This document shows, in pieces, positions 5,488 to 46,779 of a stretch of DNA of 64,000 nucleotides; position 1 is the first letter of the stretch, and each line of letters begins with the position of its first letter. The position numbers and the translations under genes are program-made. The notes beneath the pieces were generated by a model. It made no database searches, was not told where the DNA came from, and saw nothing but the letters and a program-made list of their open reading frames with translations. Source of the DNA: Eledone cirrhosa (lineage: Eukaryota); contig OZ024746.1 of assembly GCA_964016885.1 (NCBI GenBank), positions 19,096,001 through 19,160,000 on the forward strand, written 5' to 3'.

Positions 5488-5542
5488 ACTGCCTGAAGAG
5501 ATCACAGCCAAAGATGGCTGTCACTGAAATATATATAGCAGT
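5488..5542 (+). ncRNA. type I hammerhead ribozyme-like motif
   Basis: acugc CUGAAGA gaucACAGCCA-aaga-UGGCUGUcacu GAAA uauaua UA gcagu. Stem I acugc/gcagu is perfect, stem III is self-complementary, AATAAA follows immediately; the base of stem II is mismatched. Confidence 0.65.
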
Positions 5543-6109
5543 AATAAACAAAGCTAAATTTTAATCATTTGACTTTTTATTTAACTTTATTTTATATATA
5601 TATATATATATATATATGAATGCAAGTAATTTTAATAAAATAGAGTATCGTCAGTCAGCTACCATAAAACCAAAAAATCTAGAGGTATAAGACCTCAAAC
5701 ATTAAACAAGAACTATAACCAAATTAACATAAAGTAGAATACATTAGAGAAGGTTGGTTTAGATTAGTTCCAACAACCTCATTCAAGCTGTCTTCTGCTC
5801 TAGTAACTATATGATACCAACACTGAATTCATGGACATTGCTCAGACACATACTTAGTCTGTTTCTTTACAAACCACTTAATAGTTCTAATCCTGTATTA
5901 CCATAATTCCACTAATTTTGTCTATCCTTTTCGCTTGATTTGTACAAATAACAAAATCTATTTATAAAACGCCAATCGATTTAGTTTTTACCAAGTTTGA
6001 ATTAAATGTTGCAATGTTGCTTTATTTAAATTAATTATTTAGGGAACATTAAGTTTAATAAAGCTCAATTAATCTTTGGAGTCTATACTATTAGCCAATT
6101 CCATGTCCC

Positions 6110-6330
6110 ATGATAATCCAAGAAAGCGGTATGGTATAGTCCCATAACTCCATGAGGGGGAAGCTGTAGTGATATACTGTGTTTCTAGGGCTATTTTAAA
6201 CCTGACAGAATCCATCTCCTCTCCAGGTTTGAATACAGCAGATTTCTTCCGGAGGTAGTAAGAAAAAGATATAGAGGAAGTGAGAGAGAGAAAGTAAGAA
6301 AGTCAGAGAGAGAAAGAGATATTGAGGAAG
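6110..6330 (-). mobile_element. SINE family B tail fragment
   Basis: Matches the tail at 12035-12210 (gtgtttctaggg...ccatctcctctccaggttt...gatttctt). Confidence 0.7.
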
Positions 6331-6903
6331 AATTAATTGTGGGGACTTAATCTAACAAGAATGGAATATTCTTGTTAATTTAATGAAATGGTTGTAAATC
6401 TATTAAATGCTCTAATTAAAATCTTTGTCAATCTTTATTTTATATATATATATGCTTGGTGAAATTACAACACTACCGTAATTGGAAATTTACCGATTGG
6501 ACTAAACTCTGAAATGTTTATTACCCATCTTGCTGTAGACTATAAATCACATTGAACTTTATAAAAAATTTTCTTTGCCTTTATACAATTGTATTATCAA
6601 CTCACTTAAAATAGTTTACATGTATACATATATATATATACGCACAATATATACATCTTTATATACATATATATAAATATATATACACACACACACAATA
6701 TATACATCTTTATATACATATATACAAATATATACACACACACAATATATACATCTTATATATATATATCAACTGTCACTAGTGTATGCAGGACTGAGCA
6801 GCCAACAAAGTGTACATGTATGTCTCTGGACCAGAGTATTGGTATATCAAGGAAGTAGAAGCCAATAGGTTAGAATCTACCTCATTGTATTTATTACATA
6901 ATC

Positions 6904-6942
6904 ACTGTTATATGCATTTCGAAGGTAATTGTTATGTAACAG
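6904..6942 (-). ncRNA. 3' half of a hammerhead-like motif
   Basis: Minus strand: aauuaccuuc GAAA ugcaua UA acagu, then AATAAA. The matching 5' half (gcugu CUGAUGA ag..uaauuguua) lies on the + strand at 7064-7097. Confidence 0.4.
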
Positions 6943-7604
6943 AAAAATAAAGATTACATGAATAAAAACTACAGATACAGTATCCATTCTGAAGTAATTT
7001 TTATTCATTTTATTTTTATTCATGAAATCTGTATACATGAAATGTTCTGTTCATGTAATAGCAGCTGTCTGATGAAGTTGTAATTGTTACATAACAGTAT
7101 ACAAAAAGAAAAAGGCAACATACCGGTTGAGCTGTGTTCTATGTAGATAATAGAACTGTCCTATGTGTGCATACTTGTGAGATCAGTAGCTTCAGGTAAG
7201 AGGAGAGGGGGTGAAATTGTGTAAGTCTTTGTAAATGACAAGGAGACATTCAAACAAGTTGATTCTGGCTGTAGTAAGACTGATTAGTGTTAATGAGTTC
7301 AAGAAACTGAATTATGGCAGCAGACTTTGTCCAATCAGAGGTCATACCAAAGTAACATTAGGTGTGGTAGGTGTTGCAAAACACAACTCATGGATTAACA
7401 CTGTAGAGAACAAAATGAAATCTGCTCGGTTGTGAAGATGTCAAGGCACTTGGCATTCTGAAAATTTACGCACATGGAACGGAAGCTGTTGTCGTCAATG
7501 CTAACCACAACATTAACAAGCACCACAGAAAAGATACTCCAAGAATTTGATCATAAATTTGATGGCGTTGGATCAACGGAGAAGAAACTGAGTTTGAGAT
7601 AGAC

Positions 7605-8338
7605 ACATGTATACAGGAGGTTAAAGATGCCATCCGAGCATAGAATGTAGCTTACAAAGATTGGCTTATAAATAAGTCTACCTTTTTACACTTGCAGTAA
7701 AAACAGACATGAAAAGTTGCAGTAGAGACAGACAGTAGAGACATCCAAAGTTAAGACAAGGGAGAACTTTGGGGTTAAGCTGGAATCTAACTTTAGATCA
7801 GCAAATAAAAGTGTGCTAGCAAACAATCTGCCAACTTCATAATAAGAAGCCCTCCTCCACACATGCTATTAGGAATGCATCTGGGGTTATCCTCTCTTCA
7901 GAGAGGTGCATCCTAGAGAGGTGGAGAAAATATTTAGCTGATCTCCTAAACCTAGTACAACATATACAACATATTCTGATGTACATGAAGTACATCTAGG
8001 AGCAATAATTAACCTCTCAGAGGCTGAGCTCACCAGAGCCATTAAAGAGTTCAGACCTCGGGGGAGTATGAAATTCGCCTGAAACAAAGATATTCTCTCG
8101 TTGGTTCATATGTGATGGGTGGCATGGAAAGGCACCTAACTAATGGCAATCAGGAGTGATAATCCCAAATCTCAAAAAGGGGGGTGAGAGGTTGCACCAC
8201 TTATAGTGTTGGACTGTCAAGGGTGCATACTTTCAATTCCCTTGTTCATGGACTGGATTGACATGTGCAGCCAGGTTGGAAGTGTTATCAGGACTGGTGG
8301 GTGTAAGATCAGTTGGCTAGAATTTGCAGTGATGATGA
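7605..8338 (+). mobile_element. decayed RTE-clade LINE (Expander/Rex3-like), inter-domain and RT fragment
   Basis: Frameshifted translation gives QEVKDAIRA..AYKDWL, ENFGVKLESNFRSANK, ILERWRKYLADLLNP, WQSGVIIPNLKKG, QGCILS..MDWID..ISWLEFA(DD), in the order expected for Expander-type RTE ORFs. Confidence 0.75.
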
Positions 8339-8409
8339 TATATATATATATATCAAATTACAAAATATAAGGAAATGATAGACAAAAATATACATATTTT
8401 TTCTTCAAA

Positions 8410-44430: not shown

Positions 44431-44465
44431 TAGAACTGTTTCATTCAAAGGAAATCATCAGGAAA
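44431..44465 (-). ncRNA. hammerhead-like core inside a 23-bp inverted repeat
   Basis: uuuc CUGAUGA uuuc-cuuu-gaau GAAA caguu; flanked by arms 44403-44425 and 44474-44496. A related degenerate copy lies at 45987-46036. Confidence 0.4.
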
Positions 44466-44876
44466 GTTAACCTGTAGAAGCCATTTCTATATTAAACATT
44501 TATACTCTGCTATGTATTGAGTACCCTACTTACTGTGGTTACTCCCAATTGAACCCAGGATACACACCCACACATATATATCTATCTATCTATCTATCTA
44601 TCTATAGGTGTGTGCAACCCCCATCACGTCCCCTCCCTTTTGAGGTTATTTTCGATTATTTTCATGTTACACCCTTTTTACTCGATTGTATGTAAACTTC
44701 CCCTTTGTACTTGTCCCTTCTTTTTATGCCTTTATGGTAAATAAAGAAATCTATCTATCTATCTATCTATCTATCTCTCTCTATATATATATCAGTGTGT
44801 AGTTGACAGATAAGAGAAAGAGTACTCAATATCGAAATAGAGTTTAAATATTAATTTATTAAGGCTAAATAGTGAG

Positions 44877-44927
44877 TCTTGTTATTCTGGAGTTTCACCT
44901 GCAGACTCACAGGATCATCAGACAAGA
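44877..44927 (-). ncRNA. type I hammerhead ribozyme-like motif
   Basis: ucuugu CUGAUGA u CCUG-ugagucug-CAGG u GAAA cuccagaa UA acaaga. Perfect 6-bp stem I; AATAAA ~17 nt downstream. Confidence 0.7.
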
Positions 44928-44978
44928 TCTTGGTTGATGATCCTGCTAGTGCACAATTGAAACTTGAGAGTAACAAGA
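44928..44978 (+). ncRNA. second, inverted hammerhead-like copy (degenerate)
   Basis: ucuugg UUGAUGA uccug.. GAAA cuugagag UA acaaga; mirror image of 44877-44927. Confidence 0.55.
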
Positions 44979-45273
44979 CTCACTATTTAGCCATAATAAA
45001 TGAATGAATGAATATATATATATATGGCCTCAGCTGGATGGCTGGAACAGATTAAAGAGTAAAAGAGTAATATGCATATATATATATATATATACGGCAA
45101 CACTCATCTTTTTCCATTTCTCCGAGGGTTATAAACCCCACTATCAGGCTAGAAATTTCTTTAGTCTAAAATACGGTGAAAGCTTATAATTTCTAATTTC
45201 TAATTTCAAACTCGCGCACCGTTTCAAAAATATACTTACATGTTTACGTTTATAATTTGCTTGTTTATATATA

Positions 45274-45618
45274 TCATCATTTCATTTTATCATTTCATTT
45301 TATGTCCACTTTTCCCTGCTTGCAAGGGTGGGACGGGAACTGATTTTGGCTTGATTTCTACAGCTGGATGCCCTTCCTAACACCAACCTCATTTACAGTG
45401 AGTGCTGGGTGCTTTTTTGCCGTGGCACCTCCACGACCACTTTGCAGTGGAATGATAGGGACCCCAGTCCCTATCATCTCATTTCTACAGCTGAGTAAAC
45501 TGGGGCAATGTGAAATAAAGTGTCTTGCTCAAGGAAACAACACATCACCCGGTCTGAGAATTGAACTCACAACCTTTCGATTGCAAGGCCAATGCTCTAA
45601 CCACTAAGCCATGTGCCT
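45274..45618 (-). mobile_element. full-length CORE-type SINE with RTE tail, family C1
   Basis: Minus strand: A box tggcttagtgg, B box gagttcaattc, MIR-core-like ccttgagcaagacactttatttcacattgccccagtttactcagctgtagaaatgag, RTE 3'-UTR module, and a tail matching the LINE end at 28017-28066. Confidence 0.9.
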
Positions 45619-45830
45619 CATCATCATCATTTAATGTCCATTTTCCACGCTAGCATGGGTTTGGACGGGAATTGTCCCACTTGAGGCAAGATTGGTTGTC
45701 TTGCTCAGGACTGTCTGGCGGGTTTTCTATGGCTGGATGCCCTTCCTAACACCAACCACGTTTACAGTGTGGACTGGGAGGTTTTTACCGTGTTACCTAC
45801 ACGGCCACATTACAGCGTGGACTGTGTGTT
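45619..45830 (-). mobile_element. RTE 3' UTR fragment (one 112-bp module)
   Basis: Matches 42661-42890. Confidence 0.85.
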
Positions 45831-46779
45831 TTATTGTCATGATATATATATATATATATATATATATATATATATATATATATATATATATATATATATA
45901 TATGGTTTTCTGGAGGGACCAGAATGAAACCATTGTTAAATAAGGTCATTAATGCATTAATAGAGTAGAAGCATATTTCTACAGAACTAGAACTGTTTCA
46001 TTTCCTGATGATTTCATACAAATTAAATAGTTCTAGCCCTATGTGTGTGTGTGTGCATGTGCACATGTCTGTCTGTGTGTGTGTGTGTGCGTGCACATGT
46101 GTATCTGTCTGTGTGTGTGTGTGATGCATTTATACAAAAATGCAGCAACAAAGCTCAAGAAAACACACACTATCCTTAATTGTTTAACATCTAGAGTAAA
46201 CTCTGAAGTAAACACAAAGAAACAATTATGCCGACATATAAAACAATCATATGACTCATACTGGAATATGCAAACATTGTTTTGTCCCCTATCATCTCAA
46301 ATAAACAAACAAATATATAAATATATTATAATCAATAGAAAACACTGCATTGCCACTGGCAACATAATCAATACAAACTCAAACATCTACATCAAGAAAC
46401 ACATCTACATCAAGAAACACAAATGTTCCCAATAAAAACTCATCAATTGATTGCCTATGCAAATCAACTCCTCTTTAGATATAACCCATTAAAATCACCT
46501 GACAACACATACCAATGCCACCATGTATTAAAATAAATAAAGAAAAGAAAAGAAATATAGAAGAAGATTCAACTATATATTTGATCCTCCAGAAATAACA
46601 GCCAAATCTCCATCTTGAAAAAGGACTTATTAGATAATGAAGTTTTACCTATGGTCATGTCTGAAAAAAAATAGAAAGGAATGTTTTTGATCATATGTAT
46701 ATATTGTAAATTTGTATAAACAACACAACAACAAGCAGCCGAAATGGGGTTCCTTTGAAGGGTCTTTGGGTGCGTAGCT

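Follow-up and report, generated by a model that had tools for sequence, protein, structure and literature searches.

The hammerhead ribozyme (HHR) cassettes scattered through the 64,000 nucleotides of Eledone cirrhosa DNA analysed here (the window) are, with a probability of about 0.85, the 3' ends of Penelope-like retrotransposons (PLEs), of the Hydra clade where an open reading frame (ORF) is attached, and of non-coding tandem retrozymes, inserted at (TA)n tracts most likely by target-primed reverse transcription from two fixed sites. An earlier note, made from the letters alone, had proposed that many distinct PLE and non-autonomous HHR families were inserted here at (TA)n, and this was borne out: three families run into Hydra-type PLE ORFs, and two are non-coding and tandem. 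The letters described were present at every named coordinate of the window. Searches of the species' own genome found a family for every named site; 14 of the 15 positions fall in ten genome-wide repeat families with type I HHR helices, and an eleventh HHR family (L, at 26083-) was absent from the original list. The parts of the window are as follows.

5072..5594 (+): family E, autonomous Hydra PLE represented by its 3' end; HHR 5488-5542 lies in the forward arm 5263-5594, which stops at site 1; short inverted arm 5072-5267
6769..7098 (no single strand): family H, older Hydra PLE with back-to-back arms; 6769-6968 (-), 3' half of the HHR and tail; 6997-7098 (+), 5' half of the HHR
8347..8439 (-): family I, end of a 563-bp non-coding tandem retrozyme; 3' half-HHR 8410-8433 (the complete core of the family is the U3-A8 variant)
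23413..23493 (-): family J, old HHR cassette; HHR 23441-23490
24964..25057 (-): decayed copy of family C whose end is close to the short end; HHR 24999-25036
25490..25526 (-): family K, repeat tail with a TA end; the upstream CUGAUGA lies outside the family; no HHR
25923..26113 (-): family L; U3-A8 minimal HHR 26050-26087, helix III AUAU
26584..26763 (-): family B; minimal HHR 26671-26708, ACGU-type helix III
26882..27035 (+): family F, second Hydra PLE represented by its 3' end, which is truncated within the CUGAGGA box; (CA)n(TA)n end
27111..27290 (-): family C; minimal HHR 27190-27227
27311..27830 (-): family A, single 5'-truncated unit (positions 40-557 of 557); HHR 27378-27460; bounded by (TA)n on both sides (27291-27310 and 27829-27864)
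44395..44562 (no single strand): family G, insertion with two arms; the short arm carries HHR 44419-44466 (-), the inverted one the long tail
44799..45005 (no single strand): family D, two-armed insertion with an HHR on each arm; long arm (-), HHR 44877-44927; short arm (+), mutated HHR 44930-44978
45977..46040 (+): family G, decayed fragment

The sites had been listed as separate, and here the list had to be redrawn: 44877-/44928+ and 6904-/7064+ are each the two arms of one inverted insertion, 25001-/27191- belong to one family (C), and 44431-/46001+ to another (G). Family G was also considered as a MITE-like inverted repeat; this was rejected in favour of a two-armed insertion with a long helix III. 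Site 25506- was dropped as an HHR, since its CUGAUGA is missing from 9 of 9 other copies of family K and is a chance core next to a repeat tail.

That single site is a true case of what might be suspected of all of them, namely chance matches in AT-rich, microsatellite-rich DNA. The bare core CUGANGA is indeed not enriched (27 in the window vs 25.5 ± 5.0 in 300 local dinucleotide shuffles), CUGANGA...GAAA occurs 13 times vs 8.3 ± 2.9 (maximum 16) in the same shuffles, an Rfam scan at E <= 5 returned no hammerhead family among its 98 matches, and single-strand folds beat shuffled sequences only slightly (z -0.2 to -2.4). Against this, the full three-helix structure exceeds its controls, with 2 matches to a strict descriptor vs a shuffle mean of 0.08 and 4 to a relaxed one vs a mean of 0.165 and a maximum of 2 (200 shuffles); these four are the named sites 27454- and 26703-, the overlooked 26083-, and 4631-. 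Ten of the 11 families at named sites moreover hold the core spacing and family-specific complementary helices, and some are linked to PLE ORFs. The chance reading is thus already refuted for 14 of the 15 sites, and overall we consider it very improbable. The population of HHR-like motifs reported in the earlier note is confirmed. Most window copies are decayed, that is, mutated, cut at the 5' end or reduced to halves, so that the proof of the HHRs rests on their families: the type I features (core boxes, U16.1/H17, helices I-III) were found in family copies, and neither in family K nor in most individual copies of the window.

Helix pairing was counted for helix I in other, non-window copies retaining both core boxes. 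Paired positions amounted to 56/56 in family A, 34/36 in B, 39/40 in C, 29/40 in D, 51/52 in E, 44/44 in F, 25/32 in G, 18/20 in H, 27/28 in I, 23/28 in J and 34/36 in L. Over 11 families, the paired fraction is 0.91 for strands of the same family and, for strands swapped between families, 0.55 in helix I and 0.41 in helix II, a comparison that took in family J at a wrong geometry. Family C is a sister of B and has a compensated helix I. The helices are complementary within each family and specific to it, in line with the base-paired stems described earlier. The reported proximity to (TA)n also held: 11 of the 15 named sites have a (TA)4 within 220 nt downstream, against 19% for 20,000 random positions (binomial p 8e-6), although the sites may have been chosen partly by that very feature; the figure for other CUGANGA motifs of the window is 4 of 16.

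Families E, F and H are joined to PLE ORFs. Family E is contiguous with an intact, stop-free frame of 893 aa (locus L170) carrying the motifs RWK, DKT, YRDD, CxCX5C, CxxC and CxH, and family F with a second Hydra-type ORF, in which stops are present (L329); family H follows a Hydra endonuclease (EN) end, the only part seen. A single ORF with a reverse transcriptase (RT) plus a GIY-YIG EN at its C terminus was thus read in E and F, and in H from the EN end alone. RWK, DKT, the CxCX5C linker and CxxC/CxH around the E/N, with no CCHH, were read in E and F; RWK, DKT, CxCX5C, CxxC and CxH are features of the Hydra clade (PMC8557442, section 11). E, F and H also combine an HHR in the pseudo-LTR with insertion at (TA)n. 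On these motifs we place the three families in the Hydra clade, which narrows the earlier PLE assignment for those families that could be placed. The Naiad type, with an N-terminal EN and no canonical HHR, was rejected, E and F having a C-terminal EN and full HHRs. A Pfam search at E <= 0.01 gave no match; relatives carry PF26215/PF28514. The C-terminal region of family E has 68,573 first-look candidates, and many divergent Hydra-type families coexist, with EN matches 27-71% identical to E.

Families A and I consist of head-to-tail units, each with a type I HHR, and are, judged by their sequences, non-coding tandem retrozymes, likely mobilised by PLEs. The 557-bp unit of A occurs in copies about 99% identical and in tandem arrays of up to 11 or more units, within which the longest stop-to-stop frame is 55 aa. 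Family I has a 563-bp unit and forms partial tandems with a period of 552-563 bp; the longest stop-to-stop frame around it is 169 aa, and it was counted as non-coding because the unit is too short for an RT. Families A, B, C, D, G, I, J and L yielded no partner ORF. For B, C, D, G, J and L neither a PLE ORF nor a tandem unit was contiguous in the sampled copies, which were too short, and an upstream walk on four copies of family C met no ORF. A GIY-YIG family search over 30 loci returned mostly Neptune-type ENs with other HHRs, none tied to the window families. The tails of A and H are similar (score 53.5 vs 29.7 ± 5.1, p 0.002, 500 shuffles, 36 pairs tested), but a profile of 16 E and H tails did not match family A, and we therefore claim no partner for it. 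Since Neptune-type PLEs are also present in the genome and Naiads likewise target (TA)n, PLEs of more than one type are candidate movers of A.

In the families sampled, 3' ends are fixed at (TA)n and 5' ends are ragged; a (TA)4 lies within 22 nt of the 3' end in 101 of 104 family A arms. In back-to-back insertions of family A the two arms end at different sites, 1 and 2, in 48 of 49 cases. Of 64 insertions of this family, 39 are two-armed and show both ends, and all 39 pair the two sites; 24 of these were picked via site 1 and 15 via an internal stretch, hence unselected for their ends, and all 15 conform. Single arms in the internally chosen sample used both sites (2 vs 5). For an older subfamily of A the count is 9 of 10. 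The pairing also holds in 7/7 for family D, 12/12 for F and 13/16 for E, but in H only 1 of 3 conform. Further exceptions are L281 in family A and L058 (the window copy), L072 and L164 in family E; both arms are long in L335 of family I and L022 of family B. Site 2 is followed by family-specific stutters of (CA)n/(CT)n, and the sites show 2-7 nt of TA microhomology, with one site per arm.

Arrays of family A tend to be uniform. Substitutions found in two or more units of one insertion are present in all covering units 35 times and in a subset 4 times, leaving out L223 and counting sub-lineage variants once per locus (about 13 distinct); the older subfamily gave 14 and 1. Across helix III and the cleavage site, 265 of 267 matches are exact (overlapping loci counted twice). 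In L081 two unit types alternate in both arms with identical phase, L223 is a mosaic array of 13 units, and L136, L077 and L219 carry partly shared variants, those linked in L136 lying either side of the cleavage site.

Arm pairing, array-wide variants and site-2 stutters together point to twin target-primed, likely rolling-circle, reverse transcription. An RT-GIY-YIG protein, probably dimeric, would nick both strands of a (TA)n tract and start one cDNA from each of sites 1 and 2, which lie downstream of the predicted HHR cleavage site. Each cDNA would run back across that cleavage site, which implies a template uncleaved or re-ligated there. Most cDNAs would end early, leaving the 100-300-bp stubs of the window, and the new (TA)n flanks may attract nested insertions, such as the cluster at 25.9-27.9 kb. 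HHR cleavage and RNA circles are predicted here from sequence. The least certain step, to which we lean only slightly, is that family A is copied in several rounds from a circular template, a monomer or at times a dimer. A more specific proposal, which we offer tentatively and at somewhat less than even odds, is that family A records PLE integration itself: one RT dimer on one circular, self-cleaved and re-ligated RNA would prime both strands at two fixed sites, stutter in a telomerase-like manner on the first bases at site 2, and roll round the circle to give a whole array per insertion. If so, a single mechanism, in which the HHR gains a role, would account for pseudo-LTRs and retrozyme arrays as well as for inverted arms and the one-sided tail.

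For another PLE, two RT start sites bounding a 'tail' and extension of both strands have been shown in vitro; HHR cleavage was unnecessary there in vitro, unprocessed RNA was the main template, and start-site use did not differ by strand (PMC11167929). These last three findings count against our model. A single monomer circle, moreover, cannot give the L223 mosaic or the partly shared variants of L136, L077 and L219. Alternatively, with the same elements, the A and I arrays may be copies of uncleaved, linear read-through RNA whose master arrays had expanded at the DNA level by unequal crossing-over and conversion, the HHR being a passenger or late-acting; this is a serious possibility, if short of an even chance. 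It requires a separately homogenised master array for each of the about 13 variant lineages, and linear copying can only shorten arrays, yet homogeneous arms span 9-11 units. Homogeneous arrays would also follow from a monomer bottleneck if the RT jumped templates repeatedly, either on linear RNA with terminal redundancy or from one cleaved linear monomer to another, with no covalent circle, and switching between molecules could yield mosaics like L223; the cleavage site, scarless in 265 of 267 matches, and the linked variants straddling it in L136 speak against such jumps, which we regard as unlikely.

Compared with known systems, the families themselves are unremarkable members of groups already described, and their interest lies chiefly in annotating the repeats of this genome. 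HHR-bearing, (TA)n-targeting Hydra PLEs have been published, including Hydra-1_Obim of Octopus bimaculoides (Craig et al. 2021, PMC8557442), and ours share with that clade the C-terminal GIY-YIG, RWK, DKT, CxCX5C, CxxC/CxH, canonical HHR, (TA)n insertion, 5' truncation, inverted arms and a tail at one end; family E differs in its longer ORF (893 aa, with low-complexity inserts), its 3' UTR of more than 1 kb and its tail of about 96 nt vs 30-40 bp. As in minimal PLE hammerheads (Cervera & de la Pena 2014, PMC4209133), there are an extra nucleotide after A9, a palindromic helix III, the U3-A8 variant and many families per genome, mostly as single truncated copies, with opposite-strand pairs 100-700 bp apart; A, D, F, G and I depart from these in that the G10.1-C11.1 pair is missing from its normal position or helix II carries very long inserts. 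PLE-derived non-LTR retrozymes of animals are described in two reports (Cervera & de la Pena 2020, PMC7229834; Li, Clavereau & Pollet 2026, 10.64898/2026.07.22.740005), which A and I resemble in their non-coding head-to-tail units with a type I HHR each, low GC and co-occurring PLEs; their units of 557 and 563 bp lie within the 51-972 bp of the latter, a preprint, and above the 170-400 nt of the former. The retrozyme insertions seen here show all the hallmarks of PLE integration, namely a (TA)n target, two fixed 3' ends and inverted arms, of which the parts of both reports that were consulted hold no description. Poseidon PAc of Anolis (Frangieh et al. 2024, PMC11167929) likewise has two internal RT starts downstream of the HHR bounding the tail, and cleavage and extension of both strands, shown there and here read from sequence; its start sites are not homologous to the target and do not differ by strand, whereas our families have 2-7 nt of TA microhomology and one site per arm. 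The open-access literature, preprint supplements aside, yielded no published count of the arm pairing and no mention of stutter ends or octopus retrozymes. What is added here are the arm-pairing counts, the array-wide variants and the family-specific site-2 stutters. How PLEs form tandem and inverted insertions, and the role of the HHR, have been stated as open (PMC8557442, PMC11167929). In this genome a retrozyme family of near-identical copies forms long arrays, and there are intact Hydra ORFs that share its two-site ends, which makes twin-priming and circle models testable by counting and in vitro.

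The window, which lies in a 3.0-Gb assembly, is rich in microsatellites and has a GC content of 36%. An earlier note had reported hammerhead ribozyme (HHR)-like motifs or half-motifs at 15 positions, and the motif letters were present at the coordinates that it named. The bare HHR core showed no excess (27 observed, 25.5 in shuffles), and only 2 of the 15 positions passed a full descriptor within the window; in its relaxed form, this descriptor gave four window matches in total versus 0.165 in 200 shuffles. The fourth of these, at 4560-4635 (-), has a U3-A8 core with long loops and may be due to chance. 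A (TA)4 run was found at most 220 nt downstream of 11 of the 15 named sites, compared with 19% of random positions. Because so few named sites pass the descriptor in the window, each of them was searched genome-wide, and family L was first picked up by the HHR descriptor.

First-look candidates from the genome-wide search for each repeat family (not copy numbers)
A: 832
B: 2671
C: 1679
D: 2463
E: 569
F: 757
G: 2957
H: 213
I: 949
J: 40
K: 114
L: 2220

Core spacing, U16.1, H17 and the helices are conserved in the HHR families (9 to 14 other copies per family). The helix sequences vary from family to family, yet they are complementary within each, strands of the same family pairing at 0.91 and strands swapped between families at 0.55 and 0.41. 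Families I and L carry the U3-A8 core variant, a form described in PMC4209133. Family K was rejected as an HHR, since the core that the earlier note had placed at 25506 (-) is missing there in 9/9 other copies. In the family alignments the 3' ends are fixed at TA or CA/TA runs and the 5' ends are ragged. The note's general observation, and its inference of ribozyme-bearing Penelope-like elements (PLEs) or non-autonomous families at (TA)n, both hold.

A GIY-YIG frame was reached through one long E copy, and a genome search with this frame gave 140 scored matches of 86-100% identity. Among the fetched copies was a stop-free 893-aa ORF with E ends on its flanks and the motifs RWK, DKT, YRDD, CxCX5C, CxxC and CxH. 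In tandem copies of E and F the tail continues into the 5' UTR and ORF, so that the 3' end of an insertion lies near the 5' end of the cleavage-to-cleavage unit. H is located after a Hydra endonuclease end, and its tail is homologous to that of E. Among named relatives, the one closest to the PLE protein comes from Argonauta hians (41% identity), which makes an octopod host probable. P0002, a close Hydra-type reverse transcriptase (RT) relative, bears the NCBI label 'GATA zinc finger domain-containing protein 14-like', which is probably a misannotation. In its 3' region, the F-linked Hydra element seems to have two related hammerheads, about 90% alike and separated by about 1.3 kb (L329:1294-4185; L296, L298, L303). 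Neptune-type PLEs with other HHRs also occur in the genome; their endonucleases (CCHH, Cys linker; loci L232-L261) are abundant and are followed by U3-A8 hammerheads with an ACCGGU helix III and TA runs. No parent element of B, C, D, G, J or L was found in the copies and loci examined.

The A unit measures 557 bp, its longest frame being 55 aa, and forms head-to-tail arrays of up to 11 full units per arm that are about 99% identical (about 94% in an older subfamily). The 563-bp I unit occurs in partial tandems. A two-armed insertion at L332:436-1492, 70-74% identical to A, is a much older relative of this retrozyme. L223:1-7110 is a mosaic array built of at least 13 units from an intermediate A subfamily; certain unit types recur in it, other units are recombinant, and it is a possible master locus.

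The window also contains the following features.
28029-28409 (-) and 43105-44440 (-): RT fragments without Pfam match, which from their motifs we take to be RTE-like LINE; the G cassette directly adjoins one such fragment
29144-33258: minisatellite, 63 bp
36314-37508: minisatellite, 23 bp
45554-45611 (-): tRNA-like stretch, slightly below the Rfam cut-off
52885-52996: long hairpin-forming inverted repeat, possibly, like the preceding stretch, a SINE or MITE remnant
54762-55552 and 60404-60634: minisatellite, the same 112-bp unit at two places
55902-56827: minisatellite, 43 bp

The arms of A insertions end at one of two fixed sites, site 1 lying 72 nt downstream of the predicted cleavage site (TTTATAT microhomology) and site 2 about 125 nt beyond site 1 (ATATAT microhomology). 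Among 40 insertions selected on site 1, 24 were two-armed, and the other arm ended at site 2 in 24/24. Selection on an internal stretch gave 24 insertions: 15 combined site 1 with site 2, one had an end off the locus, and eight were single-armed (two at site 1, five at site 2, one other). By our own arithmetic, 15/15 such pairs would arise with a chance of about 3e-5 if the choice were independent and even. The same pairing was seen in 9/10 insertions of the older A subfamily, 7/7 of D, 12/12 of F and 13/16 of E (plus 5 unclassifiable), and in 1/3 of H, 1/2 of I and 0/1 of B. This near-strict arm pairing suggests one RT start site per target strand.

After site 2, (CA)n precedes the TA run in 12/18 F termini and (CT)n in 7/22 E termini, versus 0/14 and 0/21, respectively, after site 1. 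Because the repeat is family-specific, it likely results from template slippage at RT initiation. Family-specific reiterations of (CA)n, (CT)n or GAAT that separate the end of the element from its TA target, seen at F and E site-2 ends (e.g. window 27035-27102) and at window 44990-45024, suggest stuttering as RT starts and a source of new microsatellites. A literature search on stutter at site-2 ends found no paper.

The arms cross the cleavage site without scars in 265/267 matches, hence the template was uncleaved or re-ligated there. With masked homopolymer tracts left out and L223 excluded, A variants present in at least two units of an insertion were shared by every covering unit in 35 cases and by a subset in 4, beside 61 singletons; the corresponding counts for the older subfamily were 14, 1 and 78. 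The variants nest into lineages, and both arms share them. Assembly polishing is an unlikely origin of such locus-private variants. This pattern requires a one-unit bottleneck followed by re-multiplication, for which rolling-circle reverse transcription would most simply account, as proposed before in PMC4209133 and PMC7229834. At L081 both arms alternate between two unit types, the pattern expected from a dimer circle. Three points speak against this reading: L223 is a mosaic of at least four unit types, L136 shows an aperiodic variant, and unprocessed RNA was the main substrate in PMC11167929.

The elements are new members of already published kinds, and their value is that insertions of a young family make the PLE mechanism testable. 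The motifs of the E ORF are those given for the Hydra clade in PMC8557442 (section 11), which also names canonical HHRs and insertion at (TA)n for this clade; Hydra-1_Obim appears in the supplement of that paper. From their sequences, A and I fit animal non-LTR retrozymes as presented in PMC7229834 and bioRxiv 10.64898/2026.07.22.740005. A tail on one arm only was already known descriptively (PMC8557442 and PMC3846280). PMC11167929 showed a tail bounded by two RT start sites, extension of both strands and a predicted dimer, with no strand difference in the start site, whereas in families A, D and F, and mostly in E, the two sites are divided between the arms almost strictly.
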